DNA of 64,000 nt. It comes from a phage. The notes under the pieces are model-generated. The model searched no databases and was not told where the DNA came from. It saw only the letters and a program-made list of their open reading frames with translations. The stretch lies in the sequence record OZ346219.1; one strand, written 5' to 3'. Both the position numbers and the translations under genes were made by a program. Of this stretch, positions 11,974-46,470 are shown one piece after another (the stretch's first letter is position 1; every line of letters begins with the position of its first letter).

Positions 11974-11986
11974 ATTACCCCCAACG

Positions 11987-12011: not shown

Positions 12012-12017
12012 TTATTA

Positions 12018-13187
12018 TTACCAATCAATCTTATCAGCCGGAATAAGTTTCTTATAATTCCGTAGATAGTAAGTTTTCATTGAATCCAGAATACGGTCAT
12101 AATCAAGACCATCAAATGCAATCATCAGACACATGAAAATATATGCTTGTGCATCACCATGTTTACGTGATTCGATAGTCGCATTTGATGCATATGTCTT
12201 TCTGTCTTCTCCCGCGTGTGCGTTATAAAATTCTGTTGCTGTCGTGAAGGCATTGCGAAGAATAGACCTGAATGCTTCCTCGAATAGCTCGATTCGTTCC
12301 AGTGCTTCCGGTTCGCCTTCATATGCAGCACGCAAATCATCGGTTTCGCTTTCTACGACATAGTAGATCAGGTTATTAGGAAACATCGATGTGTTTTTAA
12401 TGTTATGCACACCAATATACCATTCACTCTTCACTTTGAACATTTGACCGTCTTTAGTGCGTGCAACAATTCCTTCGATACCTTCTGCGGTCCGAACTTC
12501 ATCAAGAATATTGCTAAAACGCGCTGAATCAACCTGTAACGCATTTACCAGATGAGGACGTAGGATTGCGTCAGAAAATAGCATTTGATGCGGTACGTAC
12601 TCTCCTGTGACGTTATGGCGTACATTCAGAAGTGTTAGCGACGGTTCAGAATATTCTACAACAATTCGGTTGCTGGGCGCTGTATATTCAAAGTTGAAAG
12701 TATAATCAGACCCAATATCAGCAATCTTAGCGCGTAGATCCGCATACTTCTCTGAATACAGAAGACCGTTTGCTCTCTCTGCCTGGCTTGAGTACAAGGC
12801 CGCTTTAGACTTCAACTGAACATAGCCGTTATCAATGTAGGTGCTTACTAGACTACCGTCCATTTTGTCCATGACCATTTCCACATCTTCCGGCTTAAAG
12901 CGAGCGCGATCATTCTCACCCAAATTAAAAAACTTCTCCATAGGACGAGATGCAATGCGGACAGGTCGGTCTTTATCATCGATTTCAAACATGATCCCGC
13001 GACACTCTAACGCATCTGGTTTATTCCACATTTCCGGTTTGCTCAAGTACAGATAACTAAAAATGCGCATACGGGTTTGCATCGCCGTAATTTCATCTTT
13101 GTAATAGAACGTATCAGATCCGTCACATAGTGCCATCAGATTTTTGAACAATGCTAAAACTTTTTTGTTGTTTTCTTTTGTTGACAT
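12018..13187 (-). CDS. rnlA: RNA ligase 1
   Basis: 389 aa; T4 Rnl1-like length and position after denA. Confidence 0.8.
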   Translation of the reverse strand: MSTKENNKKVLALFKNLMALCDGSDTFYYKDEITAMQTRMRIFSYLYLSKPEMWNKPDALECRGIMFEIDDKDRPVRIASRPMEKFFNLGENDRARFKPEDVEMVMDKMDGSLVSTYIDNGYVQLKSKAALYSSQAERANGLLYSEKYADLRAKIADIGSDYTFNFEYTAPSNRIVVEYSEPSLTLLNVRHNVTGEYVPHQMLFSDAILRPHLVNALQVDSARFSNILDEVRTAEGIEGIVARTKDGQMFKVKSEWYIGVHNIKNTSMFPNNLIYYVVESETDDLRAAYEGEPEALERIELFEEAFRSILRNAFTTATEFYNAHAGEDRKTYASNATIESRKHGDAQAYIFMCLMIAFDGLDYDRILDSMKTYYLRNYKKLIPADKIDW

Positions 13188-24931: not shown

Positions 24932-25595
24932 CTTTTAACCTCGATATTTCTTTACACTCTTTAACTACTTTAACAAATAATGCTCTTGCTTTTGCGGCGT
25001 CAATAACAAGTAGTTTCTTGTACGCCTTCATTTTAACACTATAAGTTTGCCAAATCAAGTCTTTGGCTACCTTGTCGTGTTCGTCGATTATATTTAGAAA
25101 GCTATCTAACAACATAAACGACTCAAACGATATAATCCGATTTTGCAGTAGTTTAAAGATACCGCTAGTTTCGGTTGCGGGATTGTATGTAATTAGCTCT
25201 TTAAGAGTAACCCCGCGTTTCTCGGAGAAGTATACCAGACTTTTAATGTCATCGTCAAATCGTGTTGCTGCATCGGTTATCTTTCCTATGTATTCCATAT
25301 AAAAGCCGTATGCGTCAACATCAGTGATTTCACCTACCCATGCATCGGTATTAGCTACCAGATTGCTTAGGAATAGGAAGTATAATTCTCTTAGATTGTA
25401 CTTTTCCGCTAATTTCGCGAAATAATACTTATCTCTGCGTTTATTGAATGCGGCATCAGATAACCGCATCCTCCAATTGTATTTTACGCAATCATAACGC
25501 CCGTTCATATGAGCTTTCATCATGCAATATAACATATACACAGATTTAGCATTAATTCGCATATCTGGATCTGGAGGAAGACGGTTTCTGATCAT
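24918..25595 (-). CDS. 59: helicase loader (T4 gp59-like)
   Basis: KSVYMLYCMMKAHMNGRYDCVKYNWRMRLSDAAFNKRRDKYYF closely matches T4 gp59. Confidence 0.9.
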   Translation of the reverse strand: MIRNRLPPDPDMRINAKSVYMLYCMMKAHMNGRYDCVKYNWRMRLSDAAFNKRRDKYYFAKLAEKYNLRELYFLFLSNLVANTDAWVGEITDVDAYGFYMEYIGKITDAATRFDDDIKSLVYFSEKRGVTLKELITYNPATETSGIFKLLQNRIISFESFMLLDSFLNIIDEHDKVAKDLIWQTYSVKMKAYKKLLVIDAAKARALFVKVVKECKEISRLKGENI

Positions 25596-25604
25596 ACATA
25601 CCCC

Positions 25605-25874
25605 TTAAATATCGAGAGTGTTGGTCGGTTCGTCGATCACTCCCTTCCTGAGCGTTCTATTTACTATACATTCTTGTGTGATCTTGTCAATAATGGACAC
25701 CGGAATATATTTCTGATAGTGACAATATTCTATAGAGTTTTCCTCTACAAACTGAGTTGTCGCTTCAAGATAAGTCAATCCCTCTTCAACAACCAGTTTT
25801 TCGATTGCAAGACCGTTTGCTGTTTTATTCGCGGCTTTTACCGCATGTTCATTAAGCATTGAACACCCGATCAT
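25605..25874 (-). CDS. 33: late-transcription accessory protein (T4 gp33-like)
   Basis: GLTYLEATTQFVEENSI...PTNTLDI resembles T4 gp33; T4 position. Confidence 0.7.
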   Translation of the reverse strand: MIGCSMLNEHAVKAANKTANGLAIEKLVVEEGLTYLEATTQFVEENSIEYCHYQKYIPVSIIDKITQECIVNRTLRKGVIDEPTNTLDI

Positions 25875-26127
25875 AGAGTTCTACCGCTTCGTCGCGTTCT
25901 GCTTCGAAGGTTTCGCGCTGTTGCTGGTGATACAGTTTAAACAGAATGCCCCACATTTTACCATCTACGCCTAATTCTTCTTTAGCACGCTGTTTGATCT
26001 CTTTGATCTTATCGCCATATGCTTCTTGAATGGTTTTCTGATCGCTGGCTTCTTTAATCAGTTGCGCCAGGGTATTTCCGTGTACATTTTCATCGAATAC
26101 TACTTTTTCTTTTTTCTGTTCAGTCAT
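25852..26127 (-). CDS. dsbA: DsbA-like dsDNA-binding protein (by position and size)
   Basis: 91 aa; sits between 33 and rnh as in T4; no motif checked. Confidence 0.45.
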   Translation of the reverse strand: MTEQKKEKVVFDENVHGNTLAQLIKEASDQKTIQEAYGDKIKEIKQRAKEELGVDGKMWGILFKLYHQQQRETFEAERDEAVELYDRVFNA

Positions 26128-26132
26128 AATAT

Positions 26133-26729
26133 TTAACCCTCTTTCGTCATTAATTGAAAACCACGTTCAGCTTTTGAAATTTCGCTAGGACTTAAATCGT
26201 CACCAACATATTCTAGCATCATTTCTCGGATAATGTCAAGTGCTTTTTCATCACCTGATTTTAACTCGAACTCAAGTTCATAGTGAGCCTCTCCCATTCT
26301 TTCGCCGACTTTGCAATAATAGAAAGTGTCTTTGCACATTTCCACTATAGCACCCTCAAGGTCAAGTGTCAATGACTTGCGGTATGTCATTACTTGCAAT
26401 AAAGGAACGATAAGGTCGGAGTTTACGCCTAGACTATCAACATAATGATAGAAATCATCCATTGTTGAAAAAGTAATTTCTTCTCGGTTGAAGAGTCCAG
26501 ATTCACTATCACCTATTTTGACCATGATCAATGATCTATTAACGTCAAGTCGAGCATAAATTCCTTTTCGACGCAGTGCATGATCTTCGGTATCATAATA
26601 AAATTCGTGTTTTAGAGTGTTAGCACGATCTACTAGATTGTACCCGTCATACATTGCTACCCACAAATCACAGATTGTTTCGACGCCAATTTGTGAGTGT
26701 GCATAGTATTTTAATTCAAGTTCTTTCAT
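26133..26729 (-). CDS. CYTH-like (triphosphate tunnel metalloenzyme) domain protein
   Basis: N-terminal ELELKYY (ExExK) and C-terminal ELEFELK acidic motifs; 198 aa; no counterpart at this position in T4. Confidence 0.5.
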   Translation of the reverse strand: MKELELKYYAHSQIGVETICDLWVAMYDGYNLVDRANTLKHEFYYDTEDHALRRKGIYARLDVNRSLIMVKIGDSESGLFNREEITFSTMDDFYHYVDSLGVNSDLIVPLLQVMTYRKSLTLDLEGAIVEMCKDTFYYCKVGERMGEAHYELEFELKSGDEKALDIIREMMLEYVGDDLSPSEISKAERGFQLMTKEG

Positions 26730-27949: not shown

Positions 27950-30900
27950 ATGGCAGATTTTTCTCAACATTTCAAGGCCACATTTGGCTTTGACGCTGGT
28001 AATGAAAAGGTCGTCAATGTAGCATTGGCTGATAAGAATGTCAACACCGATGCGGTCAACGTTGAATTTTTCAATTACCATAATGGTATTACTCAGTATG
28101 ACACAACTCGCGGTTATGATCAATACGGAACTACAATCTATCAAAACCGTCCGTATTATGCAAAAGAAGATATCACAAAGCCAGCAGGAGATTTTGACCC
28201 GACTAAATGGCAAGCACTGCGCACGGACCCACGTTGGGATTATATTGCAGCAACTTCCGGTGATACTCCTTTACAGTCTGGCGATTATATCGCAGCAGAT
28301 GGTCAATTTGCAAACTTGACTTTCTCTATGCCAACTAAACCAGCAGAGGGAGACACTATAACAGTAAAAGATATCGGTGGCAAGTGTGGTGTTAACGAAT
28401 TATCGTTCTTGAGTACAGGACATGAGTTTTACCATAATGGTAATGTGTATAACAGAAAATGGTATTGCACTACCCCGTATGCAATGAACTATTTCATCTT
28501 TGTTCGGAATCGTTGGCATGTTTATCAGACAGGAACAGAGCCACGCGGTGTGTACGCACAGCCAGCGATTGATGCTATTCAAATGCAGAATGGTGATCAG
28601 GTATTTCGTCGTAGTTCGTTGGGTAATATTACCTTAGTGCTTCCTAAGTTTGCCAACAATGGCGACATGATCCAGACTACAGACCTTGACGGATTAACCG
28701 CAACCAACCACGTTACGGTTAAAGTTCATGAGCACGCAGAAGAACAATCAATTGGCACGTCCGGTCTAAAAGAGATTATCGGTAAGCGTAGCGGTCATGG
28801 TGTATTCATCTTTGACAAGACGGAAAACTTATGGCGTTTGTGGGATGGTGATCAGTCTGTTCGTCTTAAACCGATCATCAATGACACTCGCTTGCAACCT
28901 AATAGCTATGTTGCTGTATTTGGTGGTCGTGATGTTACTCTGACGCTGCCGACCAATGTCGAGCCGGGTGATCGTATTCAAGTTTCTATGCAGTATATGC
29001 ACGGAAACCAGACTTGCCGAATCATTACCTCAGAAGAGGATACAAAAATCCTTATGCAGAAAAACATGGTTCAGTTTCCTAAGCGTAGCGAGTACCCATT
29101 CAATGGGACCGATACATGGACTGGAGTGTCTGAATTGTCTTTCAACGCTGCAAATGATTATGTACCTTATCTGGAGTTCTCTTATTCAGAAGGTGATGAT
29201 GGTAAGAAATACTGGTTGGTGGCACATGCTCACCCGATTGTAGAACGAGTAGATCCGACTCGTAAAGATCGTGTTGGTGTAATTGCACTGGCTACCCAGA
29301 CTGAAACGAATAAAAACCATGAAGAGAATCCTAGCGACGAAGTTGCTGTAACACCAAAAATGCTGGCTAATAAAACAGCCAACGAAACTCGACGCGGTAT
29401 TGCTCGCATTGCGACTCAAGCGGAAACGCATCAAGATACTGGTTCCAACTTCCTGGATGATGTTATCGTTACACCCAAAAAGTTAAATGACTGTGTTGCT
29501 ACCGAAGCCCGTCGTGGTGTGATGGAAATTGCAACCCAGCACGAAACCAATGAAGGTTTAGACGATACCCGCGCTATTACTCCTAAGAAATTAGAAGAAC
29601 GTCGCGCTTCCGAAGATCTAGCTGGTATTGCTGAAATTGTTCAGGCTGGCGGTAGTGCTGCCGCTCGACGTGGCGAAGCTGGTACAGGGATCTATAACAT
29701 CAACGACCATGCTAAAATTGTTACGCCACAAAACATCAACGAAGTCAAGGCGACCGAAACTTCCCGTGGTGTTGGCTATCTGGCAACTGACGCGGAAGTG
29801 CAAGGGGCTACAGAATCAACCCCGCAAGATGCTTTACTAATCACGACTCGCACGCTAACGAAACGTACTGCTACCGAATCGCGCACTGGTATCGCTGAAA
29901 TTGCAACTCAGGAAGAAACAAACTTAGGTCAAAGTGATAACCATATCATCACGCCTAAAAAGCTGCATACTCGCCGCGCAACTGAAACTTTACATGGTTT
30001 AGCAGAAATTGCAACTCAACCGGAGTTTGACGCAGGTCGTGACGATTCTCGCATTTCTACCCCATTGAAGATTAAAACCTTCTTTGAGAATGCACAGCGT
30101 TTGAAAGTAGATCCGACTCAGGGGCTTAACCTTACTGGTGATTTGTGGCAAGGTATCATGATCAGCGGTCTGGATGCAACCGAAGACACAAAAGGTGTCG
30201 CTAAAGTTGCGACTACTCAGCTTACTGACGCTGGTCAAGATGATACTACAATCATCACGCCTAAAAAGCTGCAAGGCAAAAAGGCCACCGAAGGTAAAGA
30301 AGGTATTATCCGAGTTGGTACTCAAGCCGAAACCGTGGCTGGTATTATGGACAATGTAGCAATTTCTCCGAAGAACTTCAAATATGTTGTTCAGACAGAG
30401 GATACATGGAAAGCAACCGAAGCGCGTCGTGGATTCTTGAAAGTTGCTACTCAGGAAAACTGTTTTGTTGGTGATAATCTGCAAGGTTCTACTCAAGAAC
30501 TAGGAAACTACCAGCATGACGGAATTGCTGTTACCCCTAAAGGATTAAACTACGCACTTGCTAATTTCTTACCTAAGATGGCAACCGCTCAGAATAGTTT
30601 GAAATTGGGTAACGTAGAGGCCTCTAAATGGGCGCGTAGAGACATTGACCAGACCATTGAGAGCAATTACACGTTTAATAAAAACGTTAACGTGAAGGGC
30701 GATTTAGAGTGCTTAAAATCTGGTTCCTTTGAAACTCTGTCTGTGACTAAGAACTCGACCGATGTTCCGAGTAATGGTCATCTGGTGTTGGGTGAGCGTG
30801 GAGTTGACGGTCACACCGGAATTACTCTGCATGGCACAACCGCATCGGAAGGCATGAAAAACTCTTGGTCTATTATCGTTGGTGGTACTGGAACAGCGCA

Positions 30901-31690
30901 AGTTGTTGATAGTGATGCTATCGCTTTCGGTAAAATCAATGATGGTGGAGTCGTTGAGCATTACGCCTTTGCTATGAAACACAATGGCGACGCGACAGCA
31001 TATAGAGACTTTATTGCAGGTCGTAACCTGTATGCGAAACAAGGCGGTTTATACATTGTTGACCAGTCTAATCCGGCAATGACTCGTTCCCCAGATGGTA
31101 TGCTGAATATCGGTCACGGTGGAAGTGTTAACATCAAGGCAGGGCATCAAACGTTAACTACAGAGATCGCCGGACAGAAGTATCAGATCGTACACGCAGG
31201 AAACGCTGACGAAGTTCTTAACCGTCAGTTTGTTAAGAATGCTGGCGATACAATGGTCGGTAAGCTGACTATGGATAATGCGCCTATTGTTTCTGTTAAG
31301 CATGAAGCTAGCGCGGCAACCGCTCCGGCAATCGGTAACATCGGTTTCTGGAATATGCGAGTTACTACCCAGAACATCAAAGAAACTTATCCAGAGAAGA
31401 AAAACGGTACTCTGATGCAATGGGGTACTGACGCGGACGGGCTTACCCAGCTTTGGTCCCCTGATGGTACTCATAAACATTATATCCGTTCCGGTACTGG
31501 TGGTCAATGGACCGCATGGGGTGAAATTTACACCAAACAGAACAAGCCTACCGCTCAGGAAATCGGGGCAGTAGTTGCAGAAGGTGGTTTAATGAACTCT
31601 ATGACGGTTCGTGATTGGATCAAAGTTGGTAATGTTAAAATCATCGCCAATAATCTGACTCGTACCGTAGACTTTATCTGGGAAGACTAA
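27950..31690 (+). CDS. 34: long tail fibre proximal subunit
   Basis: 1246 aa; T4 gp34-like N-terminus and repeated ATExRRGIAxIATQ motifs. Confidence 0.9.
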   Translation: MADFSQHFKATFGFDAGNEKVVNVALADKNVNTDAVNVEFFNYHNGITQYDTTRGYDQYGTTIYQNRPYYAKEDITKPAGDFDPTKWQALRTDPRWDYIAATSGDTPLQSGDYIAADGQFANLTFSMPTKPAEGDTITVKDIGGKCGVNELSFLSTGHEFYHNGNVYNRKWYCTTPYAMNYFIFVRNRWHVYQTGTEPRGVYAQPAIDAIQMQNGDQVFRRSSLGNITLVLPKFANNGDMIQTTDLDGLTATNHVTVKVHEHAEEQSIGTSGLKEIIGKRSGHGVFIFDKTENLWRLWDGDQSVRLKPIINDTRLQPNSYVAVFGGRDVTLTLPTNVEPGDRIQVSMQYMHGNQTCRIITSEEDTKILMQKNMVQFPKRSEYPFNGTDTWTGVSELSFNAANDYVPYLEFSYSEGDDGKKYWLVAHAHPIVERVDPTRKDRVGVIALATQTETNKNHEENPSDEVAVTPKMLANKTANETRRGIARIATQAETHQDTGSNFLDDVIVTPKKLNDCVATEARRGVMEIATQHETNEGLDDTRAITPKKLEERRASEDLAGIAEIVQAGGSAAARRGEAGTGIYNINDHAKIVTPQNINEVKATETSRGVGYLATDAEVQGATESTPQDALLITTRTLTKRTATESRTGIAEIATQEETNLGQSDNHIITPKKLHTRRATETLHGLAEIATQPEFDAGRDDSRISTPLKIKTFFENAQRLKVDPTQGLNLTGDLWQGIMISGLDATEDTKGVAKVATTQLTDAGQDDTTIITPKKLQGKKATEGKEGIIRVGTQAETVAGIMDNVAISPKNFKYVVQTEDTWKATEARRGFLKVATQENCFVGDNLQGSTQELGNYQHDGIAVTPKGLNYALANFLPKMATAQNSLKLGNVEASKWARRDIDQTIESNYTFNKNVNVKGDLECLKSGSFETLSVTKNSTDVPSNGHLVLGERGVDGHTGITLHGTTASEGMKNSWSIIVGGTGTAQVVDSDAIAFGKINDGGVVEHYAFAMKHNGDATAYRDFIAGRNLYAKQGGLYIVDQSNPAMTRSPDGMLNIGHGGSVNIKAGHQTLTTEIAGQKYQIVHAGNADEVLNRQFVKNAGDTMVGKLTMDNAPIVSVKHEASAATAPAIGNIGFWNMRVTTQNIKETYPEKKNGTLMQWGTDADGLTQLWSPDGTHKHYIRSGTGGQWTAWGEIYTKQNKPTAQEIGAVVAEGGLMNSMTVRDWIKVGNVKIIANNLTRTVDFIWED

Positions 31691-31723: not shown

Positions 31724-32863
31724 ATGACACAAGATATAGAATTACGCAACACTGGAATTAGGTTTGCGCATTTCGACGAAGACTCTGCGACATTTACCAG
31801 CATTTCAGAAAATAACTCTGTGATGTATAAGCTGGAAGTGCGCGGATCTAATGCGGATTCTACCAAACCAGCAAGGATTAGATTTAATGGAGTGGAGATC
31901 GTTGGCACTGGCTATGAAAATGGCCTAAATTTTAAAGTTCTTACTCCAACTGGACAACTACACGAAGAAAAGGTATTCTATGGTCGCGGTGCTGTTTTGG
32001 CAATGCGTGATTATCTTTCTTTGCTGAAAGGTGATTATATCATTGCGATGGCAACTCATGGAGAATTGTTTGCAGATCCGATAAGTGATGTTGTATTTTC
32101 TAAGATGGGATCGGTATCATTCCCGAATCACATTTTGTTACAGCAAATGCCTCGTGTATCATATGCAGCAATTTATTCTACTAAAATGGGTAAAATTGTG
32201 TGCGAAGGGATGCAAGCAACTCACGGGGAAGGACAAGATTCATCTATACAAATTGAGAAAGTCTATGATACTATAGATGATCTTGCTATAACAGGAACAC
32301 CACAACGATTTTTAGATTATCCGGTTGAGTATGTTAGCGAAGATGCCGAACATTTCGAGCTAATACAATGGCCTCGTGATGAGACCAGCGCCCCACTTGA
32401 GGATTTTAACATAAAGACAGGTGACAAACTATCAATATCCTTTGAATTGTTCCGTGATAGTGCCGCAGCCGCAGCCAACGTAACAGCGCGTTTCTATCAC
32501 AACTACTTCACCGATGGACAATATCAAACTGGTGTTCGATACAATGCCAGCAAAAAAGACCAATGGGAAAAGTTTGAAGCCGTCTATACCGTACCGGAAG
32601 GAGTTGATAGTGTAGTAACTGGTTGTATCAGATATCCAACCAACTCCAATGAAGGTATTGTTAAAATTAGAAACATACTAATAACGCCGATCAGTGGAGT
32701 CGTCAAAACTACTGGTCCTACTTCATTTGGTGTTAATGGTGTTAGAACAACTCATATTCAGGATAACGGTGATTTTACTAACCCTGTAATGAGTCTTCTT
32801 AAACTACCCAGAGATAATAAACACATCACATCCAACAACTTTAAAGAGTTTGATGTTGATTAA
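31724..32863 (+). CDS. 35: long tail fibre hinge protein (gp35-like)
   Basis: 379 aa, T4 gp35 size and position. Confidence 0.6.
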   Translation: MTQDIELRNTGIRFAHFDEDSATFTSISENNSVMYKLEVRGSNADSTKPARIRFNGVEIVGTGYENGLNFKVLTPTGQLHEEKVFYGRGAVLAMRDYLSLLKGDYIIAMATHGELFADPISDVVFSKMGSVSFPNHILLQQMPRVSYAAIYSTKMGKIVCEGMQATHGEGQDSSIQIEKVYDTIDDLAITGTPQRFLDYPVEYVSEDAEHFELIQWPRDETSAPLEDFNIKTGDKLSISFELFRDSAAAAANVTARFYHNYFTDGQYQTGVRYNASKKDQWEKFEAVYTVPEGVDSVVTGCIRYPTNSNEGIVKIRNILITPISGVVKTTGPTSFGVNGVRTTHIQDNGDFTNPVMSLLKLPRDNKHITSNNFKEFDVD

Positions 32864-32903: not shown

Positions 32904-33024
32904 ATACAGTTGGTTAAATTGTAACCAAAACGAAGAAAGATCTTTAGAATAATAGAAAATTTGTTTCGGTTAAAAATTAGTCAGTGCCTACGGCACGTCG
33001 CGAAGCGATATTTTGTTAACATTC

Positions 33025-33032
33025 TATAAATA
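33025..33032 (+). promoter_or_regulatory. T4-type late promoter motif TATAAATA upstream of gene 36
   Basis: Exact TATAAATA about 35 nt before ATG at 33067. Confidence 0.55.
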
Positions 33033-33066
33033 CTCGGAACTATAACTAATTTTTTGAGGTTACTTT

Positions 33067-34557
33067 ATGGCAGATTTGAAATATGGATCTACTGTAGGTG
33101 GATCTCCCATTTGGACGCAAGGAAATTTGACGATCCAGCCAGCGGGGGATCAGCTTTTCTACAAAGGTCATAAAATCTATACCGCTTTTGATAGACCTTC
33201 GGCTACCGATTTTGATGCTGTTAGTGCATCCGAAGGTGGCACATTTCAAAAGCAAGTTCATTTCGAGGAAGGTTTAAGCGTAGGTAGCGCATCGGCTGGA
33301 GAAACCAAAAAGAATGGTATCTTTAAAGGTCAGAGTGACGCTGCTAATTTTGACGGCGTAAGCTGGGGTTTGCATTCATGGAAGTCAATCGGCTTTGTTA
33401 ATGCCCGTGATGGCGTTATTATGGCGTATATTGACACCACAACGGGCGAATTTAAGTCTAAAGGGACTATCGAAGGGACAACCATTAAAGACACAGGTCA
33501 ACGCGTCTATAGCCCTGTTAATAAACCAACGAATAATGATTTGGATTTAGTTTCCCGTCGCGGTGATACTCTCACAGGAACATATAATTTAAACACTGTC
33601 ACTGTTAAACTATCGGTTGATTCGAAATTAATTGCAAGGGAACGTGATTTAATTAATTTTGATGCGACTAAGATCTATTATGGTAACGTTCTTGATACGT
33701 TGGTCTTCCGAAGTAAAGATGAGCCTACCATTTTTGTTAATGGCAAAGAAGGTCGTTTTTATCACACCAACAATAAACCAACTAAAGCCGATGTTGGGCT
33801 AGGCAATGTCACCAATGATGCACAGGTTAAACGTGCTGGTGATATTATGGAAGGTAACTTGCAAGCGCCTAGAATGTTGGCGACAAACGATCCTGCTGGT
33901 CCTAATGAATTGGTTCGTTTGAGCTACTTTGAGAGAAAATCAATGGTAGCAAATCCAACCATCATTGGAAACGTTGATTGGAACACTCTTATTAATCGCG
34001 GTATCTATCGTGTGGAAAATGCTGGATCAGGTACTAATAAACCGTCTGATAGCTATTATAACGGCGTTTTGATGGTATATCGCCCAGAAGATGCTGTTGG
34101 TACTCGTCGAATTGTTCAGGTGTATTATCCTGAATCTATTGACCATCCGATGTGCTGGCGTTCGTGTTCTAATGAATCATGGACTGCATGGAACTATGTA
34201 GATCACCGTAAATTAGCCGATATTCGCTATGTTAACGTCACTGGCGATACCATGACAGGACCGTTAACTGTTCCTGCTGCAAATGGCGTTAGAACAGCTA
34301 AAACTAACTATAACGGGGATAACTGTTATGCGGCGTTAAGCGGTGCTGATGGTACTGCTATGATTCACCGCATTAGTGATATTAAAGGGACCGAAAAGCT
34401 GGGGATCACCCACGACTCAAAGGTCGTGTTTTTCCGTTCTAGAAACAATACTCAAACCGTGGACCGCTATCAGCTTTATCATGAAGGTAATAAACCTACT
34501 CCGGCTGATGTTGGAGCGGTTCCACTTAATGCGGTGATTGATTTTGGTACTTTCTAA
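33067..34557 (+). CDS. 36: long tail fibre distal-proximal connector (gp36-like, extended)
   Basis: 496 aa; MADLKYG N-terminus and NKPT.ADVG motifs shared with gene 37. Confidence 0.6.
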   Translation: MADLKYGSTVGGSPIWTQGNLTIQPAGDQLFYKGHKIYTAFDRPSATDFDAVSASEGGTFQKQVHFEEGLSVGSASAGETKKNGIFKGQSDAANFDGVSWGLHSWKSIGFVNARDGVIMAYIDTTTGEFKSKGTIEGTTIKDTGQRVYSPVNKPTNNDLDLVSRRGDTLTGTYNLNTVTVKLSVDSKLIARERDLINFDATKIYYGNVLDTLVFRSKDEPTIFVNGKEGRFYHTNNKPTKADVGLGNVTNDAQVKRAGDIMEGNLQAPRMLATNDPAGPNELVRLSYFERKSMVANPTIIGNVDWNTLINRGIYRVENAGSGTNKPSDSYYNGVLMVYRPEDAVGTRRIVQVYYPESIDHPMCWRSCSNESWTAWNYVDHRKLADIRYVNVTGDTMTGPLTVPAANGVRTAKTNYNGDNCYAALSGADGTAMIHRISDIKGTEKLGITHDSKVVFFRSRNNTQTVDRYQLYHEGNKPTPADVGAVPLNAVIDFGTF

Positions 34558-34561
34558 TTTT

Positions 34562-34587
34562 AGCGGGGATTATCTCCCCGCTTTTCT
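34562..34587 (+). terminator. terminator-like hairpin after gene 36
   Basis: AGCGGGGAT-tatc-TCCCCGCT followed by TTTTCT; a CTAAATAA late-promoter-like motif follows. Confidence 0.45.
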
Positions 34588-34627
34588 AAATAATATTATT
34601 CTAACAACCGTTTAAGGATTTTATAAA

Positions 34628-37564
34628 ATGGCAGATTTAAACAGAATCCAATTTAAACGTACTAGCACGAAAGGTCGTAAACCTGATGCTACTACAATGA
34701 CGCAAGGTGAACTTGCTATCAACCTGCATGATTATTATTTGTTTACAAAAAATGACTCTGGTTCTATTATTAACTTAAGCTGTCCTCCGATCTATGACCG
34801 CGATGTTATCATGGCTGGTAAAGTAAAGGGAGATTATTACATTTTAGGTAAAACCGCCAATTATCTTGAAGATCAGACAGCGAGAGACCTTAACCGTTTT
34901 GGGGCATTCCGTACCAACGGTCTAGATGGATTTTTAGATTTGACCTTGCATGTTCCTCATTCTGGTGGCGTTCAACATGGTCGAGGATTTACTTTCAATT
35001 ATGGACACACAGGACCGCGCGTAGAAACTTATGGATATAATGCACAGGGACAAAAAGCATTTAGTTATAAAATGTATCACGAAGGTGATAAACCAACTCC
35101 AGGAGAATTGAACGTCTATAGCAAACAAGAAGTAGATAGAATGTTTGTTAAGAACGTTAAACTTTCTACAGGTTCTGGTGATATCGTTGAAGGTTATTTT
35201 AAATTAGCGACTGCGATGATTCCACAAGACGGTCGTAGTGTATTTTTTCGTATTCATGGTGGTAACGGATATAACGTTACTGCATACGATCAAGTTGATA
35301 TTGTAGAAATTGTTATTCGCAGTGGAAATAATCGTCCTAAAGGTGTTAACGTTATTGCATACCGCCGAAATACAAACAAAGCATTTGATGTTTTGGCTGT
35401 TAATACTTCTGGTGATAACTATGATATCTACGTGAAATATCAGCGTTGCACTGATAACGTTATTGTTGAATTTGGTAAAAGTGTTGATGTTAATCTGGTA
35501 GTTCATGACGTTCCAGACTTTGTTGTTGATCGTCCTGTTGGCGATAATGTTATTGGCGGTCGCGCGGTAACTCTTTTCAACACCGAAAACAAACGAGGTG
35601 TGTTGAGTTTTGACGATAACACACAAAATAGTTATGATATTGTTCACTTGAGTAATGATAAGGGTACTGGACGAAAATATATTCGTAAATTCCGTAGTAA
35701 CTATAATGAAACGATCTGGCATGAGACGGTTCAAGGTAACGTATATCGTTTAGCTACTGGAACTACCGACGCAAACGAAGTTCTCAAAATTACCGACCGC
35801 ACGTTGCAAACTGGCAATGCTGTTTTTGATGGTGGTAATAATAATGTTCGTTTACATCGTAAAACCGGAAAAAGTAACTATCTGGAATATTATGATGCCC
35901 GTAACGGAGCAAATAAACGTCAGGGATATATTGGCTATGGTGATGCCACAACTAACCAGTTGTCAATTATTAACGAACTCTCCGAAGGTAATAACTCGAT
36001 TTTCTTTAACGAGACAGGTCAAATTTCACTTAACGTAGGAAAGACAAAAATTGTTCATAGCAACGGACAATATATTTCTACTAACGCCGATAACTATCGT
36101 ATAATTTATGGTAATTATGGAACATTCTGGCGAAATGATAGCGTTAAACTTTATCTCATGTCCACTGCCGAAAATGATAAATGGGGTACTTGGAATAGCT
36201 ATCGACCATTCATTTACAACCTAACCAACGGCGATGTTCAATTGGGTGGTGATGCCAATACAACCGTATTGACCTTAGAAGCAGCAAGCAAAATCTCAAG
36301 ATTTGGTGGTTCTGTTTATAGCGGTGGCGATTTTTATAATAAAGGCCAGTATATCATAATGGAAGCTGGGCGCGCTGGATCTCGCGATTATATTCGATTT
36401 AATCATTGGGGTGATAGTAATAATGCCCGTGATAACGTTTTGTACATAGAAGATAGTCAAGGCCGACATTTTAGCACAGAACGTGCGATGGGTACTGGTG
36501 CTCTTAAAGCATACTTCTTAGGCGATCTTGAAGTCGGTGGTAAGTTTACTTGGGGTAAAAATACAGCTACATCTAGCTTTAATATTCGTGCATGGGGTAA
36601 TGATTCCCGTAAACAAGTATTAGAATGCGCGGATGAAAGTGGGTGGCATTGGTACACACAACGAACGGGCGGTCCTGATACTTCTGCAATTGATTTTGCC
36701 ATCAATGGTACTGTTAGGCCTCAAGCAATTCACACTGGCGGTAATATCACGCTTAACGGTGCTGATATTGAATTTAAACGAAGCGGTAACAAGCATTTAT
36801 GGTTTAGAGATCCGAACGGCTTAGAGTTGGGTCTGTTGTACTGCGATGATGCTGGTGTTATGCGTATTCGTGGGGAGAAATCGACCGAAGTATGGAAATT
36901 CTCAGCAAAACAGATTCATCTGGAAACTGGTACTGCCGGAAATGGTGTAGGCTTGCTTCGTGGTGCTGTAGGTGGTGGCGCATGGACTCAATGGCGAGAT
37001 CGTGGCACTGGCTTGCAGGTTGATTGTCAGCAATCTGAAAACTCAGCGCATAACGTATGGAGAGCTACGCATCAAGGAAAATACCACATCGCGGCAATGG
37101 GTGTACACGTTCCTGGTGGTACTATCGGAAATGCTATGGTGCGTATTCACGTACACGATGCAACTTTTGACTTTAGCGCAACTGGTGATTTCCAAGCAGG
37201 TCGTAACGGTAATTTTAACGATGTGTACATTCGTTCTGATGCTCGCCTGAAAATCAATAAGGAAGAGTATAAAGAGAATGCTACCGATAAAGTTAATCGC
37301 TTGACGGTATACACCTATGACAAGGTTAAATCTTTAACTGACCGTACTGTCATTGCTCATGAAGTTGGTATTATTGCTCAGGATCTTGAGAAAGAATTGC
37401 CAGAAGCAGTAAAAACCTCGAAGATCGGCGACGGTGATACACCAGAAGAGATCTTAACAATTTCTAACTCTGCTGTCAACGCTCTTTTAATTAAGGCGTT
37501 TCAGGAAATGAGTGAAGAACTTAAAGCCGTTAAAGCTGAACTAGCGGAACTTAAAAAGAATTAA
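34628..37564 (+). CDS. 37: long tail fibre distal subunit with C-terminal intramolecular chaperone (peptidase S74-like) domain
   Basis: 978 aa; C-terminal SDARLKINKEEYKENATDKVNRLTVYTYDKVK...AHEVGIIAQDLEKELPEAV is characteristic of self-cleaving tail-fibre chaperone domains. Confidence 0.8.
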   Translation: MADLNRIQFKRTSTKGRKPDATTMTQGELAINLHDYYLFTKNDSGSIINLSCPPIYDRDVIMAGKVKGDYYILGKTANYLEDQTARDLNRFGAFRTNGLDGFLDLTLHVPHSGGVQHGRGFTFNYGHTGPRVETYGYNAQGQKAFSYKMYHEGDKPTPGELNVYSKQEVDRMFVKNVKLSTGSGDIVEGYFKLATAMIPQDGRSVFFRIHGGNGYNVTAYDQVDIVEIVIRSGNNRPKGVNVIAYRRNTNKAFDVLAVNTSGDNYDIYVKYQRCTDNVIVEFGKSVDVNLVVHDVPDFVVDRPVGDNVIGGRAVTLFNTENKRGVLSFDDNTQNSYDIVHLSNDKGTGRKYIRKFRSNYNETIWHETVQGNVYRLATGTTDANEVLKITDRTLQTGNAVFDGGNNNVRLHRKTGKSNYLEYYDARNGANKRQGYIGYGDATTNQLSIINELSEGNNSIFFNETGQISLNVGKTKIVHSNGQYISTNADNYRIIYGNYGTFWRNDSVKLYLMSTAENDKWGTWNSYRPFIYNLTNGDVQLGGDANTTVLTLEAASKISRFGGSVYSGGDFYNKGQYIIMEAGRAGSRDYIRFNHWGDSNNARDNVLYIEDSQGRHFSTERAMGTGALKAYFLGDLEVGGKFTWGKNTATSSFNIRAWGNDSRKQVLECADESGWHWYTQRTGGPDTSAIDFAINGTVRPQAIHTGGNITLNGADIEFKRSGNKHLWFRDPNGLELGLLYCDDAGVMRIRGEKSTEVWKFSAKQIHLETGTAGNGVGLLRGAVGGGAWTQWRDRGTGLQVDCQQSENSAHNVWRATHQGKYHIAAMGVHVPGGTIGNAMVRIHVHDATFDFSATGDFQAGRNGNFNDVYIRSDARLKINKEEYKENATDKVNRLTVYTYDKVKSLTDRTVIAHEVGIIAQDLEKELPEAVKTSKIGDGDTPEEILTISNSAVNALLIKAFQEMSEELKAVKAELAELKKN

Positions 37565-37598
37565 GGAAACTCCCAGGGAAGGGAACTACTAAGGAGAA

Positions 37599-37844
37599 AT
37601 GGCTATGGTCTATAATATCGTCATTGGTGCTTTATCTAATTTCGGAATGAAATTATTGTCAAAGTTAATTAGTGAAAAGATGCTCACTAAAATTTTCTTC
37701 TATTGCGCTCGTCGTCTTGCGGCTTATACCAATACACCAATTGACGATCGTTTTGTGGAAGAACTTTATAAGGAGTTTAATAAAGACCAGTCAGAAGATA
37801 GTAACGAGCAAGATAAACCTAGTGATAGTCAACTACCTAAATAA
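37599..37844 (+). CDS. hypothetical small protein (81 aa) in the position of gene 38
   Basis: ORF between gene 37 and t; hydrophobic N-terminus, acidic C-terminus. Confidence 0.35.
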   Translation: MAMVYNIVIGALSNFGMKLLSKLISEKMLTKIFFYCARRLAAYTNTPIDDRFVEELYKEFNKDQSEDSNEQDKPSDSQLPK

Positions 37845-37877
37845 GAGTACACTGTCATAGTTATCTTAGGGCATTAT

Positions 37878-38534
37878 ATGCAAGTTTCTGAAAAAGGGAA
37901 AGACTTTGCTATCTCAAATGTCCTGCGCGCTATTTTCACAACTAAAAGCACGGAGTTGCTCGTACTTCGTGTTTTTGCTGCCGTCGTGTTGTCCATATTG
38001 GCATTTGTCGTTTATAGTAAAAACGAGTTATTTGCGCTTTATAAAGAGACTCGTTATGAGACTTATGCTCACATTCTCCAGGTAGAGAAAGACCGCAATT
38101 TTGATAATGCAGCACAGGAGCAGTTACAGATAGTTCATGTGTCGGCTGATGCCGATTTTTCTGCTGTTTTTAGTTTTCGTCCGAAAAACCTAAACTATTT
38201 TGTTGATTTGGTGGCATATGAAGGAAAGCTACCACACACAATCGATGAAAAAAATTTAGGCGGATTCCCTATCAATAAAACGAGTGAAGAATATCGTAGG
38301 CATCTTTTAGGTAAATCATATTTTACCGATAAAGATTTCCAGTATATTCCATCAAGAGAAAAGAAATTAGAGAATATCGATATAGGTTTCATGTATTCTT
38401 GTCCTATATTCAATCTCGATAATGTCTATTCTGGTAGTATCGCCATTTCATGGAAGAATAAACCGGATATTGACATTGAGAATTTAGATACTCTTTGCAA
38501 TCAATCTGCCAGAATCCTCGGAAGGATTAGATAA
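37878..38534 (+). CDS. t: holin
   Basis: 218 aa; FSFRPKNLNYFVDLVAYEGKLP and MYSCPIFNLDNVYSG match T4 holin T. Confidence 0.9.
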   Translation: MQVSEKGKDFAISNVLRAIFTTKSTELLVLRVFAAVVLSILAFVVYSKNELFALYKETRYETYAHILQVEKDRNFDNAAQEQLQIVHVSADADFSAVFSFRPKNLNYFVDLVAYEGKLPHTIDEKNLGGFPINKTSEEYRRHLLGKSYFTDKDFQYIPSREKKLENIDIGFMYSCPIFNLDNVYSGSIAISWKNKPDIDIENLDTLCNQSARILGRIR

Positions 38535-38540
38535 CTTAAA

Positions 38541-38570
38541 GGGGAAGCCTTTCGGCCTCCCCTTCTTTTT
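38541..38570 (+). terminator. intrinsic terminator after holin t (possibly bidirectional)
   Basis: GGGGAAGCC-tttc-GGCCTCCCC followed by TTCTTTTT; the convergent minus-strand gene ends at 38569. Confidence 0.6.
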
Positions 38571-38817
38571 ATTGGCGCATAGACGCGCCTGAATCGCATT
38601 TTGACGCTGTATGATGAAAACAGGTAGCGTACCAGTCATCGGCTTGTTTGTCTTCGTCAGAAAACGCGTAATTGCGTTGTATGCCGTTTTCTACTTTGAC
38701 CAGTGCAATAGCTGTTTCTGGAAGATCAATCAATCGAACAAAATCACCATCTTCCCACTCTACACGAGCAATATCATAGCCCATCTCAAAGTATACAATC
38801 GCTTGTTCTAATTTCAT
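38569..38817 (-). CDS. hypothetical protein (82 aa), possible DUF2829-like fold
   Basis: N-terminus MKLEQAIVYFEMGYDIARVEWEDG loosely follows the EAL..lK.G..v.R..W pattern; weak. Confidence 0.35.
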   Translation of the reverse strand: MKLEQAIVYFEMGYDIARVEWEDGDFVRLIDLPETAIALVKVENGIQRNYAFSDEDKQADDWYATCFHHTASKCDSGASMRQ

Positions 38818-44082: not shown

Positions 44083-45440
44083 CCCTTCTTAAGTTCTTTA
44101 AGATCTTTCTTATATTCCTTCATTGCGGTCGTCTTTGTCCAATACTCATATTCACTATGATGTTTATCGGCATCTTTGACCAGTCGATCATACTCTTCTT
44201 GAGTAACGCTATACAATGGCATAGAAACGAGCTTATCGGCATATGGGCGAAGTTTTTCATGTTCATTGATGGATTGCATTACCTCGGCCTTTTTCTTGCC
44301 CTGTAGCTCGATTTCGCCCTTAATTACGCGGTCTATAAATTCAGCTTTAGCCATTGCATAATTGTATGCTTCCAGTGTTTCCGCTTGCATCAATTCAATG
44401 CGTTTATCTACATAGCCTAATCGGATTTCGACGAATCGACGGATCAGATCGCTCGCTTTCTCGAATACTTCTACTAAACCACGTTCGTTAACTACTACGA
44501 TATTCTGGGCTACTAACTGCGTTAGTTTAAAATCCTTCATGATTTGCTCATGTCGAGCGGATTCATCTTCGCTTTTGAAATAATCGCGTTTCAGTGTTAC
44601 TTCAAATCTGAATCCGTCCTTAGAGCAACGGTCATTATACGATACAATCAGATCTTTTTCTTCCAGTGCATCCAGTACCGCTACATATTCTTCACGGTCG
44701 AACTTATAAGGAACTTCTGATATTGTCAGCTTAGTCTTGCCGTTTAGTTCATATGTACCCTCAAGAATCACACCATCGCGGTCATCACGAGGGATAACTT
44801 TACCCGTGAATTTCGGGAATTGAACACTAGGTTCTTTATCCAGTTTTCCGGCAAGTGCTAGCTCTGTGCATTCAATAAGGCTTTCCAGTGAATGCGGTAA
44901 AATGTCAGTTTTATACCCTGTAGCAATACCACTAATACCATTAGCCAATACCATTGGCACAACTGGCAAGTAGAACGCTGGCGGGATGTGTTCCAGATCT
45001 TCGTGCTTAGGTGCGCAATTCATATCTTTATAGATTTTAAAGAAGTTTTCATGCACACGAGCAAAGATATAACGTGCTGCACCTGCTTTCTGGACTAAAC
45101 GAGATCCGAAGTTACCTTGACCGTCAAGCAGTGGAGTATTATTGCTCCATGTATTCGCCATGAGTGATCCGGCTTCTACGGCATTAGTTTCCCCGTGGTG
45201 ATACCCCAACTCAGCAACACCAGATCCAATATCTGCCATCTTACGGAATTTCTTACGGTCGCCTTTACTCTTTTGAAGTGCGCACTCCATAACAAAGCGT
45301 TGTACTGGTTTAAGCCCATCTACCAATTGAGGAATCCCGCGTTCCTCGGCAGAATAGATCGCATATTCCTTAGCTTCATTATGTACAATGCTTTCAAGGC
45401 TGCGGTAAGTAACTGATTTATTCATCTTCACCTCATACAC
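44079..45440 (-). CDS. 52: DNA topoisomerase II medium subunit (GyrA-like)
   Basis: 453 aa; GyrA/ParC-like N-terminal region with active-site Tyr context; T4 position. Confidence 0.85.
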   Translation of the reverse strand: MYEVKMNKSVTYRSLESIVHNEAKEYAIYSAEERGIPQLVDGLKPVQRFVMECALQKSKGDRKKFRKMADIGSGVAELGYHHGETNAVEAGSLMANTWSNNTPLLDGQGNFGSRLVQKAGAARYIFARVHENFFKIYKDMNCAPKHEDLEHIPPAFYLPVVPMVLANGISGIATGYKTDILPHSLESLIECTELALAGKLDKEPSVQFPKFTGKVIPRDDRDGVILEGTYELNGKTKLTISEVPYKFDREEYVAVLDALEEKDLIVSYNDRCSKDGFRFEVTLKRDYFKSEDESARHEQIMKDFKLTQLVAQNIVVVNERGLVEVFEKASDLIRRFVEIRLGYVDKRIELMQAETLEAYNYAMAKAEFIDRVIKGEIELQGKKKAEVMQSINEHEKLRPYADKLVSMPLYSVTQEEYDRLVKDADKHHSEYEYWTKTTAMKEYKKDLKELKKG

Positions 45441-45795
45441 GCTTACAAATCACATTCTTTACTTTATCAGATTTATCCGCCCAATCCAATAGCCATTTTA
45501 ACGGAAGGATTGAAACAATAAACGGGGCAGCAATCAAAGCAAACATGATACACCTGATAATCAGGAAAACGCAAGTGACAAAACTAGCGATAGTGATCCC
45601 GACAAAACAAAATACCATAGAAAACAGAGTAATGATATAGAAAGGCCAGAATACCCACTCCCGCATCTTAACGCCTTTGTATTCTCTGAATTGCTTAAAA
45701 TCTACAAACAACTCTCGGATAGACGCGTACAGGACCGAAAAATCATCTTTCATTGCTCTGAATGAGCAATCTTCTATTTTAGAATGACCTAGCAT
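45433..45795 (-). CDS. integral membrane protein (120 aa)
   Basis: Two long hydrophobic segments (FWPFYIITLFSMVFCFVGITIASFVTCVFLII and FALIAAPFIVSILPL). Confidence 0.45.
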   Translation of the reverse strand: MLGHSKIEDCSFRAMKDDFSVLYASIRELFVDFKQFREYKGVKMREWVFWPFYIITLFSMVFCFVGITIASFVTCVFLIIRCIMFALIAAPFIVSILPLKWLLDWADKSDKVKNVICKRV

Positions 45796-45797
45796 TA

Positions 45798-46091
45798 TTA
45801 ACCGCCTTTCATCATTGATACTGGAATTGTTTTCTGATTTGTGTATAACTGGCCTACTTCAATTTTTTCTTGAATCACCACGACGTTACAATATCCACTG
45901 TCTTTAAGTTTTCTGATAATGTCTCGCTTTTGTTCGTCGGTGATAGGATTGACGGTTCTCACCAATTCACCGCAAATAATAGCACCATCTTTACAATTAC
46001 CAGTAACTTTCATGCTACGACCGTGAACAACAACCACATCACCGTAAATCACATTTTCGTCGTCGTATTTGGTAATAATCGTGACCGTCAT
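45798..46091 (-). CDS. hypothetical protein (97 aa)
   Basis: ORF between rIIB and gene 52. Confidence 0.4.
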   Translation of the reverse strand: MTVTIITKYDDENVIYGDVVVVHGRSMKVTGNCKDGAIICGELVRTVNPITDEQKRDIIRKLKDSGYCNVVVIQEKIEVGQLYTNQKTIPVSMMKGG

Positions 46092-46137
46092 AATGTTATT
46101 CCCTCTAAGAAAGGCCGCGCAAAGCGGCCTATGTTTA

Positions 46138-46470
46138 TTATTGTTCTACAGTATAGCCGTTGTTTTCAAGCCATGCAATAACAATCTTTTCGCCAATTTC
46201 ATCGAGCATTTCATCAGCGCCATATTCTTTAATGAAAGTCGATGGATCATTATTGCTTACTACGTGCTGGATCACAACATGTTCAGGAATTGCGTCTAGC
46301 AGTTCGCTATGATCATACTCATTAACGATATCTTCAACACTAACATTATTAACCAAATCAACATCATCCATAGTCACAGTAACGCGACCGGACGGACGCA
46401 ATGAATATTGGCTACTTTCAACTTCAACATGTGCACTTTCGCAAGTAACTTTCATATCAACCATAATCAA
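46138..46470 (-). CDS. hypothetical acidic protein (110 aa)
   Basis: ORF between rIIB and gene 52. Confidence 0.4.
   Translation of the reverse strand: MIMVDMKVTCESAHVEVESSQYSLRPSGRVTVTMDDVDLVNNVSVEDIVNEYDHSELLDAIPEHVVIQHVVSNNDPSTFIKEYGADEMLDEIGEKIVIAWLENNGYTVEQ

Follow-up and report, generated by a model that had tools for sequence, protein, structure and literature searches.

Long-tail-fibre module of an RB49-like Krischvirus with an S74-terminated gp37 and a probably displaced gp38

Introduction

In long tail fibres of the T2, T6 and S16 type, an S74 domain is cut off from gp37 and the new end of gp37 is capped by gp38 (PMC3157838; PMC9569957). The gp38 adhesin family of the T2 type corresponds to Pfam PF05268 and PF21721 (GP38/Gp38_N). 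The gp37 of T4, unlike that of the phage described here, has no S74 domain; its receptor-binding tip is part of gp37 itself, and it depends on a T4 gp38 chaperone that is unrelated to the adhesin. In other phages, S74-ended fibres are known that bind their receptors uncapped.

In the RB49-like phages, an S74-ended gp37 together with a displaced gp38 is already known. Gene 38 of this group is called "displaced to a distant locus" and also "displaced elsewhere in the genome" in PMC3157838, and it is placed "approximately 55 kb downstream of gp37" in bioRxiv 10.64898/2026.04.02.716166. RB49 gp37 has been described with a chaperone domain that cleaves itself and is lost before gp38 attaches, and the RB49 host-range mutants are in gp38 (E230K, Y231S), not in gp37 (PMC9569957). 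Here we describe the long-tail-fibre locus in a 64-kb stretch of phage DNA (OZ346219.1, 64,000 nucleotides, referred to as the window), which in an original prediction had been read as lacking gene 38.

Results and discussion

The window carries a fibre module with the gene order of JSE and RB49. By megablast, positions 33000-38600 matched about 30 Krischvirus genomes (coverage 82-96%, identity 88-94%), and the 24 kb from 40000 to 64000 were 96-97% identical to the same set. Judged by its sequence, the window comes from an RB49/JSE-like Krischvirus coliphage of the T4 type. As in RB49, JSE, and Phi1, the module consists of genes 34, 35, 36 (496 aa), 37 (about 978 aa with an S74 end), a 79-aa ORF, and t (Table 1), with 88-94% DNA identity to those phages. 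What sets it apart from RB49, JSE, and Phi1 is a gp37 shaft of new mosaic composition. No identical genome was found in the databases: a public record of the exact gp37 protein was not found, and IMG/VR does not contain a 67-mer taken from gene 37. The module also resembles that of T4, with a homologous gp37 N-terminus, the same module order, and the same placement of late promoters. Gp36 had been predicted to be about twice the T4 length, which is borne out, as it is 2.2 times as long as T4 gp36 (221 aa; T4 gene 36 CDS of 666 nt). A 1491-nt gene 36 is annotated at the fibre loci of all six relatives examined.

Table 1 Features of the long-tail-fibre module and adjoining genes in the window
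Feature	Position	Strand	Basis
Late-promoter motif TATAAATA before gene 34	27914-27921		
Gene 34, proximal long-tail-fibre subunit, 1246 aa	27950..31690	+	phrog_972 E=0, full length; syntenic with JSE gene 34
Gene 35, proximal hinge connector, 379 aa	31724..32863	+	phrog_1154 E=1.1e-125
Late-promoter motif TATAAATA before gene 36	33025-33032		
Gene 36, distal hinge connector, 496 aa	33067..34557	+	phrog_16472, full length; Pfam Phage_T4_gp36 weak
Gene 37, whole, distal fibre subunit, 978 aa	34628-37564	+	
Gene 37, predicted mature part, aa 1-869	34628..37234	+	phrog_1699 E=2e-178
Gene 37, C-terminal intramolecular chaperone / predicted S74 self-cleavage domain, aa 870-978 and stop	37235..37564	+	Pfam PF13884
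Small ORF, PM2 gp l homologue, 81 aa from first ATG	37599..37844	+	phrog_402 E=5.5e-20
Gene t, holin, 218 aa	37878..38534	+	Pfam Phage_holin_T E=4.5e-61; phrog_860 E=5e-88

The C-terminus of gp37 is an S74-type chaperone domain. The ORFs lie at the coordinates given in the original prediction, and the translated gp37 includes the C-terminal sequence quoted there. Residues 870-929 of gp37 score 45.1 bits (E=1.2e-11) with the Pfam family Peptidase_S74 (PF13884), whose gathering cut-off is 22 bits; a match this strong is not expected by chance. At the N-terminal edge of the domain lies the hexapeptide SDARLK, which begins at Ser870 (nt 37235-37237) and places the second member of the S-x4-K dyad at Lys875 (codon 37250-37252). 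From Ser870 onwards, the C-terminal fragment comprises the last 109 of the 978 residues. The hexapeptide aligns with SDRRIK in S16 gp37 (6f45), SDERLK in the tail fibre 8jov, and SDIRLK in Bas45 gp37, giving the pattern S-D-x-R-[LI]-K. Across 17 homologues the Lys is invariant and the Ser nearly so, and the surrounding motif NDVYIRSDxRLK is kept. The domain as a whole is 95-99% identical among Krischvirus, including RB49, JSE, and Phi1.

The predicted fold agrees with this assignment. An AlphaFold2 model of the gp37 C-terminus reached a mean pLDDT of 80, and about 90 across the domain, with a long C-terminal helix at model residues 117-147. Foldseek matched the domain model to the ICA domain of MyRF (7dc3, E=5e-5, TM 0.57-0.61) and to the endoNF chaperone (3gw6, probability 0.91-0.99). 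The domain thus shares its MEROPS/Pfam S74 family match, Ser-Lys motif, predicted fold, and final long helix with the endosialidase K1F chaperone and the MyRF ICA. Unlike these, it sits on a T4-type fibre shaft, where the freed end would dock a separate adhesin and would not be the end of an enzymatic tailspike. The original prediction had recognized a self-cleaving chaperone domain at this end of gp37 and proposed an alignment to S74 domains to locate the catalytic Ser; sequence, motif, and predicted fold all support the domain, and the alignment identifies the residue as Ser870, with Lys875.

From homology to T2 and S16, we infer that the S74 domain is released by autoproteolysis; by analogy, the scissile bond is probably Arg869|Ser870. 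The domain could instead be a trimerisation module that does not cleave, so that mature gp37 would keep it and gp38 would bind elsewhere or not at all. This is very improbable, given that the dyad and its motif are conserved in the 17 homologues, that the domain varies so little among Krischvirus, and that RB49 gp37 has been described as self-cleaving (PMC9569957).

A conserved tip precedes the S74 domain in a gp37 that is otherwise mosaic. The shaft contains a Gp34_trimer-type domain at aa 459-530 (Pfam Gp34_trimer, E=3.5e-22). In an alignment of seven Krischvirus gp37 sequences, the shaft shows 49-92% pairwise identity, compared with 93-99% for aa 858-978. The first 470 residues of the window gp37 are JSE-like (97-99%), while aa 561-770 are just 55% identical to JSE. 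The 12 residues before Ser870 (aa 858-869) are invariant in all seven sequences. This is the arrangement found in T2/S16-type fibres, in which a conserved docking tip lies ahead of the S74 domain. Residues 834-972 share 37% identity with Bas45 gp37 across its tip and chaperone domain, and no sequence similarity to S16 gp37 was detectable upstream of the cleavage motif. The stretch that directly precedes the invariant tip (aa 771-857) has an identity of only 64-78% among relatives, so some contribution of this variable part of gp37 to host range is possible, as judged from the alignment.

No gp38 is encoded beside gene 37 or elsewhere in the window. Searches of all six reading frames of the 64 kb by tblastn gave no match at E<=10 with RB49 gp38 and nothing significant with T4 gp38, from which we conclude that neither the locus nor the rest of the window holds a gp38, whether of the adhesin or the T4 type. 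Gene 38 does not directly follow gene 37 here, where the sole gene between 37 and t is the small ORF, which resembles PM2 gp l. Two other candidates were rejected. The window might have held a disguised Gly-rich gp38, but no ORF of at least 120 aa exceeds 10.7% Gly, and that maximum is gp37 itself. RB49ORF143w (279 aa, between genes 8 and 9) was considered as the displaced gp38 and is a methyltransferase (Pfam MTS, E=1e-9). A tblastn search of the window with RB49 gp57A returned a single insignificant match (E=2.7), and gp57A is not detectably encoded there; in RB49 its gene lies close to gene 1.

In every relative checked, a full-length gp38 adhesin of the T2 type is encoded about 55 kb downstream of gene 37 and on the opposite strand. 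RB49 carries this gene on the minus strand (45367-46143), with matches to Pfam GP38 (E=7e-72) and to Gp38_N. By tblastn, 24 of the 30 records in the megablast list contain full-length gp38 at a distant locus. Two genomes outside that list, Delraymugoa and Brandy, encode a GP38 protein of 261 aa (E about 1e-70) at the very position expected from the 55-kb offset. The computed offset from gene 37 to gene 38 is 54-56 kb in PTE-Eco09, RB49, and JSE. Applied to the window, it places the expected gene 38 locus about 28-30 kb past the right edge, and because this is outside the window, gene 38 could not have been seen in the original reading. The statement that gene 38 is missing holds for the locus and for the window, not for the whole genome, and it fails for the relatives checked, in each of which the gene is encoded at a distance. 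We infer from sequence comparison that gene 38 is displaced in this particular phage as well.

On gp37, an S74 domain normally accompanies gp38 and does not substitute for it. In the Tequatrovirus Bas45, the order is 36-37(S74)-38-t, with E=2.4e-15 for the S74 domain of gp37, and its gp38 is 90.5% identical to that of RB49. A close metagenomic relative of the window phage, contig L015, has the order gp37(S74)-gp38-small ORF-t, with a gp37 that is 68% and a holin that is 85% identical to those of the window. The adjacency of genes 37 and 38 is a typical feature of the family and not a functional requirement.

We consider it very probable that the window holds a standard Krischvirus long-tail-fibre module (34-35-36-37, small ORF, t) that builds a T2/S16-type fibre from a self-cleaved gp37 and a displaced gp38 cap. 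Three gp37 chains would form the trimeric fibre with the aid of their own C-terminal S74 domains. Each domain would then remove itself by means of the Ser870/Lys875 dyad, which would release a fragment of about 109 aa and leave about 869 aa as mature gp37. The exposed and strongly conserved gp37 tip would be capped by the separate gp38 adhesin, encoded, as in other Krischvirus, about 55 kb downstream of gene 37 and on the opposite strand, and the hypervariable loops of gp38 would bind the receptor, which is OmpA, Tsx, or O-antigen in relatives. The small ORF between genes 37 and t belongs to the lysis-factor family of PM2 gp l, is unrelated to gp38, and goes with holin t.

By this analogy, cleavage and capping would proceed as in T2 and S16. 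The module shares with the T2/T6/S16 distal fibre (PDB 6F45) the same S74 domain, the S-D-x-R-x-K motif, and the expected maturation pathway, and the GP38/Gp38_N adhesin family of those phages is also found in relatives of the window phage. It differs from T2, T6, and S16 in having a gp36 of twice the length and a shorter mature gp37, and in the location of gene 38, which in Krischvirus is found on the other strand at a distance of about 55 kb.

A gp37 that is self-sufficient was the interpretation given in the original prediction. According to this, there would be no gp38, and receptor specificity would reside in the part of gp37 that directly precedes the cleavage site, comparable to endosialidase tailspikes or the L-shaped fibre of T5. 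The lack of gp38 in the 64 kb, the variability of aa 771-857 among relatives, and the uncapped S74-ended fibres of other phages are all compatible with such an arrangement. One relative, contig L016, has a different distal fibre that ends in a Gp10_C domain and lacks gp38, which indicates that replacement of the fibre tip occurs in this group. Against this stand the remote gp38 of every Krischvirus relative checked and the assignment of receptor recognition in RB49-like phages to gp38 (PMC9569957; PMC3157838; bioRxiv 10.64898/2026.04.02.716166), including the location of the RB49 host-range mutations. In addition, the residues immediately before Ser870 are the invariant ones, the tip has a homologue in Bas45, whose gp38 so closely resembles that of RB49, and S74 and gp38 occur together in Bas45 and L015. 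The prediction had named a gp38 homologue encoded elsewhere as an observation that would count against it; since one is found in every Krischvirus relative examined, the interpretation fails, and a self-sufficient gp37 is highly improbable.

The small ORF is probably a lysis accessory protein and not a replacement for gp38, as judged by its homologues. An ORF of 81 aa had been predicted before holin t. The ORF is present, but its start is more likely the second ATG at 37605, which would give 79 aa: a GGAG ends 8 nt upstream of this ATG, and relatives annotate a 240-nt gene at this position. The ORF and PM2 gp l share phrog_402 (E=5.5e-20 and E=8.2e-14, respectively), and hhalign of the two gave E=1.4e-4. 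The ORF itself had no match in NCBIfam or in a Pfam set without the PF26925 model, and the family name Phage_PM2_Gpl (PF26925) comes solely from precomputed matches of homologues that are 61-92% identical to it. A membrane protein was considered and rejected, as the Kyte-Doolittle maximum over 19 residues is 1.19, which falls short of the usual transmembrane threshold; amphipathic is the better description of the N-terminus.

Members of this family adjoin lysis genes, either holin or endolysin, in four phage lineages. PM2 gp l is presumably the protein P18. A passage in PMC9502842, citing Krupovic 2007, describes P18 of PM2 as a lysis factor needed for outer-membrane disruption. Like the small ORF, gp l of the corticovirus PM2 is encoded beside a holin gene, and it differs in length (51 aa versus 79 aa) and in the acidic tail of the small ORF. 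The window phage also encodes a two-component spanin, so the function of the small ORF may differ from that of gp l or be redundant. It is a tentative possibility, resting on homology, that the 79-aa ORF is a working PM2 gp l homologue that acts beside holin T despite the classical two-component spanin.

That the small ORF stands in for gp38, as a minimal fibre chaperone or adhesin, is very unlikely: it occupies the gene 38 slot between 37 and t, its homologue in Ounavirinae also follows a tail-fibre gene, and it shares the seven residues EELYKEF with T4 gp38 (best tblastn match, E=1.2), but hhalign against T4 gp38 gave a probability of 0.8%, so that the identity is treated as chance, the Ounavirinae fibre is of the T4 gp37_C type and not S74, the homologue in Vibrio phage 1.112.O comes after a GH108 endolysin, in a neighbourhood free of fibre genes, the ORF shares its PHROG with the PM2 lysis gene l, and in L015 it coexists with gp38. 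True loss of gp38 in this particular phage is very unlikely, and much less likely than the gp l reading of the small ORF.

Conclusions

A gene that is absent from its canonical slot in a window is not necessarily absent from the genome, which is a limit of any window-based reading. Where gp37 ends in an S74 domain, this should be taken to indicate a fibre capped by gp38 rather than one that is self-sufficient. For RB49-like therapeutic phages, host-range prediction and fibre engineering should target the remote gp38 and not the gp37 tip. The link between the conserved small ORF upstream of holin t and PM2 gp l is the sole modestly new point. If true, it would mean that a small amphipathic lysis accessory protein is common to the tailless, membrane-containing corticoviruses and to tailed phages of the T4, FelixO1, and Vibrio types.

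Fibre module of an RB49/JSE-like Krischvirus

Megablast places the window in an RB49/JSE-like Krischvirus: its fibre module matches about 30 genomes at 88-94% identity, and the 24 kb following it are 96-97% identical to Krischvirus genomes. No identical genome was found in the database, no record in the public collection holds the exact gp37 protein, and a 67-mer of gene 37 was not found in IMG/VR. The interval under study lies in a plus-strand late-gene block within otherwise minus-strand surroundings, with the GC skew flipping at 28-38 kb. A T4-type late-promoter motif (TATAAATA) stands just 5' of gene 34 (27914) and gene 36 (33025). Its three matches per 64 kb are no excess over chance; what counts is the placement before these two genes, not the number of matches. 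The window also codes for a fibre-attachment factor, the gp63/RnlA homologue, at a site far from the fibre genes, and the i- and o-spanin genes lie directly downstream of it.

Features of the window that bear on the fibre module and its surroundings
Feature	Coordinates	Strand	Length	Basis or remark
Gene 34	27950-31690	+	1246 aa	ORF call and PHROG/Pfam
Gene 35	31724-32863	+	379 aa	ORF call and PHROG/Pfam
Gene 36	33067-34557	+	496 aa	ORF call and PHROG/Pfam
Gene 37	34628-37564	+	978 aa	ORF call and PHROG/Pfam
Small ORF	37599-37844	+		Likely start ATG 37605
Holin t	37878-38534	+		ORF call and PHROG/Pfam
o-spanin	within 11201-11653	-		phrog_812; classical two-component type
i-spanin	11650-12024	-		phrog_739; classical two-component type
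gp63/RnlA homologue	12018-13187	-		"RNA ligase and tail fiber attachment catalyst"

The gp37 C-terminus is an S74-type chaperone domain

The original prediction had read an intramolecular chaperone domain from a C-terminal sequence that is indeed present in the gp37 translation. The Pfam match, the SDARLK motif and the predicted fold agree on this and establish the identity of the domain; its self-cleavage is predicted. Peptidase_S74 (PF13884) matches aa 870-929 (E=1.2e-11; 45 bits, cut-off 22). Alignment to S74 domains, which had been proposed as a check, gives Ser870 of SDARLK (codon 37235-37237) as the candidate nucleophile and Lys875 as the candidate general base, with a predicted C-terminal fragment of 109 aa from Ser870 on. 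The block NDVYIRSDxRLK is kept when gp37 is aligned with 16 homologues from the database; there the Lys is invariant and the Ser is absent only from one truncated entry. A phmmer search of PDB sequences matched the region to the Salmonella phage S16 gp37 construct 6f45_A (...SSDRRIKKD...), the tail fibre 8jov (SDERLK) and the MyRF domain 7dc3. In Foldseek, the AlphaFold2 model of aa 831-978 (mean pLDDT 80, about 90 across the S74 domain) came closest to the auto-processing intramolecular chaperone domain of MyRF (7dc3; E=5e-5, TM about 0.6); next was 3gw6, the "Intramolecular Chaperone" of an endosialidase, at prob 0.91-0.99.

Gene 38 is moved, not missing, in Krischvirus relatives

No gp38 follows gene 37, as had been noted, and tblastn of the whole window with either RB49 gp38 (the T2-type adhesin) or the unrelated T4 gp38 (a chaperone) returned nothing significant. 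The broader claim that gene 38 is missing fails for the genus, since homologues are encoded elsewhere in Krischvirus relatives. In RB49 (AY343333.1) the gene is annotated on the minus strand at 45367-46143 (25367-26143 of our piece L003), and its product matches Pfam GP38 (E=7e-72) and Gp38_N. Among the tblastn matches listed, at least 24 of 30 relatives carry gene 38 in full length at a distant site. Delraymugoa and Brandy, outside the best 60, have a 261-aa GP38-family ORF (E about 1e-70) exactly at the offset-predicted site and in the same gene neighbourhood. With genomes treated as circular, megablast and tblastn positions in PTE-Eco09, RB49 and JSE put gene 38 downstream of gene 37, 54-56 kb from its stop codon, equivalent to window coordinates of about 92-94 kb, 28-30 kb beyond the right edge. 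In these genomes gene 38 has moved, a displacement already published for RB49-like phages (PMC3157838; bioRxiv 10.64898/2026.04.02.716166). Judging from the genus, the present phage very probably also encodes gp38 elsewhere.

The displaced RB49 gene, a late structural gene, sits amid small ORFs near rI and tk, on a strand that otherwise carries early genes. Although the genomes are otherwise far apart, RB49 gp38 shares 75-90% identity with the gp38 proteins of several Tequatrovirus phages, a sign that the adhesin may have been transferred horizontally.

S74 domain and gp38 as partners

An S74 domain without an adjacent gene 38 had been taken to mean a gp38-independent fibre, with host specificity moved into gp37 just upstream of the cleavage site. 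Both steps are wrong for this phage group, in which S74 domain and gp38 go together and are not alternatives. In the Tequatrovirus Bas45 (PaulHMueller) the genes run in the canonical order 36-37-38-t; its gp37 has an S74 domain (E=2.4e-15), with tip and chaperone domain 37% identical to aa 834-972 of the window gp37, and its gp38 is 90.5% identical to that of RB49. RB49 mutants with a newly gained host had changes in gp38 only (E230K, Y231S; PMC9569957), and RB49 has been modelled to bind OmpA via gp38 (bioRxiv 10.64898/2026.04.02.716166). The combination of gp37-S74 with a remote gene 38 is already known and published for RB49-like phages.

The gp37 of the window phage was aligned with that of six relatives. 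The shaft is mosaic (49% to 92% pairwise identity in blocks of 30 residues), aa 771-857 are moderately variable (64-78%), and aa 858-978, including the 12 residues ahead of Ser870, are 93-99% identical. Conservation of this end agrees with a cleavage site and a surface on which a conserved gp38 N-domain docks, and is at odds with a tip that binds receptors under diversifying selection. The variability of aa 771-857 leaves room for a secondary part, and gp37 may contribute to host range in this way. Two clearly different alleles occur among Krischvirus at aa 381-470 (35768-36037), where the window is 99% identical to JSE, and these two are 34-37% identical to RB49, Sf20, PTE-Eco09, SSG23 and Whisky. 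Further downstream, at aa 561-770, its nearest relatives are Sf20 and Whisky; this switch of alleles points to recombination inside gene 37. Gene 37 of Brandy (MZ504876.1; L008), reported as the isolate with the broadest host range, is annotated in the deposited genome as two CDSs that overlap (1828-3465 and 3411-4757), perhaps through a frameshift or an error of sequencing within the shaft.

By analogy with T4, the distal half-fibre would be built of gp36 and gp37 trimers. At 496 aa gp36 is, as had been noted, about twice its T4 length (221 aa), whereas the predicted mature gp37 (869 aa) is shorter; the sum of 1365 residues per chain, against 221 + 1026 = 1247 in T4, implies a similar overall length of the distal half. 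The S74 domains of three gp37 chains would nucleate folding and then probably self-excise at or beside Ser870, and gp38 from the remote gene, following the RB49 literature, would cap the gp37 tip and bind the receptor.

Related fibre loci and the small ORF

Two relatives have other layouts. On a metagenomic Logan contig from a close relative (SRR8048117; L015, 2-2164) the genes stand in the canonical order gp37(S74)-gp38-gp l-like ORF-t; its holin is 85% and its gp37 chaperone domain 68% identical to ours, and its downstream genes resemble those of the window. This order suggests that 37-38-ORF-t is ancestral, and that the RB49 lineage either displaced gene 38 or re-acquired it at another site. 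An ENA contig (ERZ27235516 k99_9381; L016, 149-4286) encodes gp36 (501 aa), a 524-aa fibre, a gp l-like ORF and holin t. This fibre has a C-terminal Gp10_C domain, with no S74 match in the Pfam scan and no gp38 adjacent in the fibre locus; from that locus, it may be a different distal-fibre solution without gp38.

As a gp38 substitute, the small ORF that precedes holin t was rejected; the two coexist in L015. Relatives annotate it as "hypothetical" or "dc5". Its product is amphipathic, not clearly transmembrane, with an acidic tail. It matches phrog_402 (E=5.5e-20), as does gp l of corticovirus PM2 over its whole length (E=8.2e-14), and homologues 61-92% identical to it carry precomputed Pfam PF26925 "Phage_PM2_Gpl". 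Direct hhalign of the small ORF to gp l, with a thin profile, gave E=1.4e-4 (probability 52%, 41 columns). These matches assign the small ORF to the family of PM2 lysis gene l. Members of the family adjoin lysis genes in each of four lineages. They precede holin t in Krischvirus and its relatives and follow gp k in PM2; in the siphophage Vibrio phage 1.112.O the place is directly after a GH108 endolysin, and in Ounavirinae it is between a tail fibre and a gene annotated "holin" (unknown function in PHROGs). PM2 gene l presumably encodes P18. The PM2 proteins P17 and P18 are described, in a passage of PMC9502842 citing Krupovic 2007, as lysis factors, a holin plus an outer-membrane disruption factor. 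Since classical i- and o-spanins are encoded at 11.2-12.0 kb, any part that the small ORF plays in disrupting the outer membrane would come on top of theirs. Of these results, only the connection of the small ORF with PM2 gp l has some novelty.
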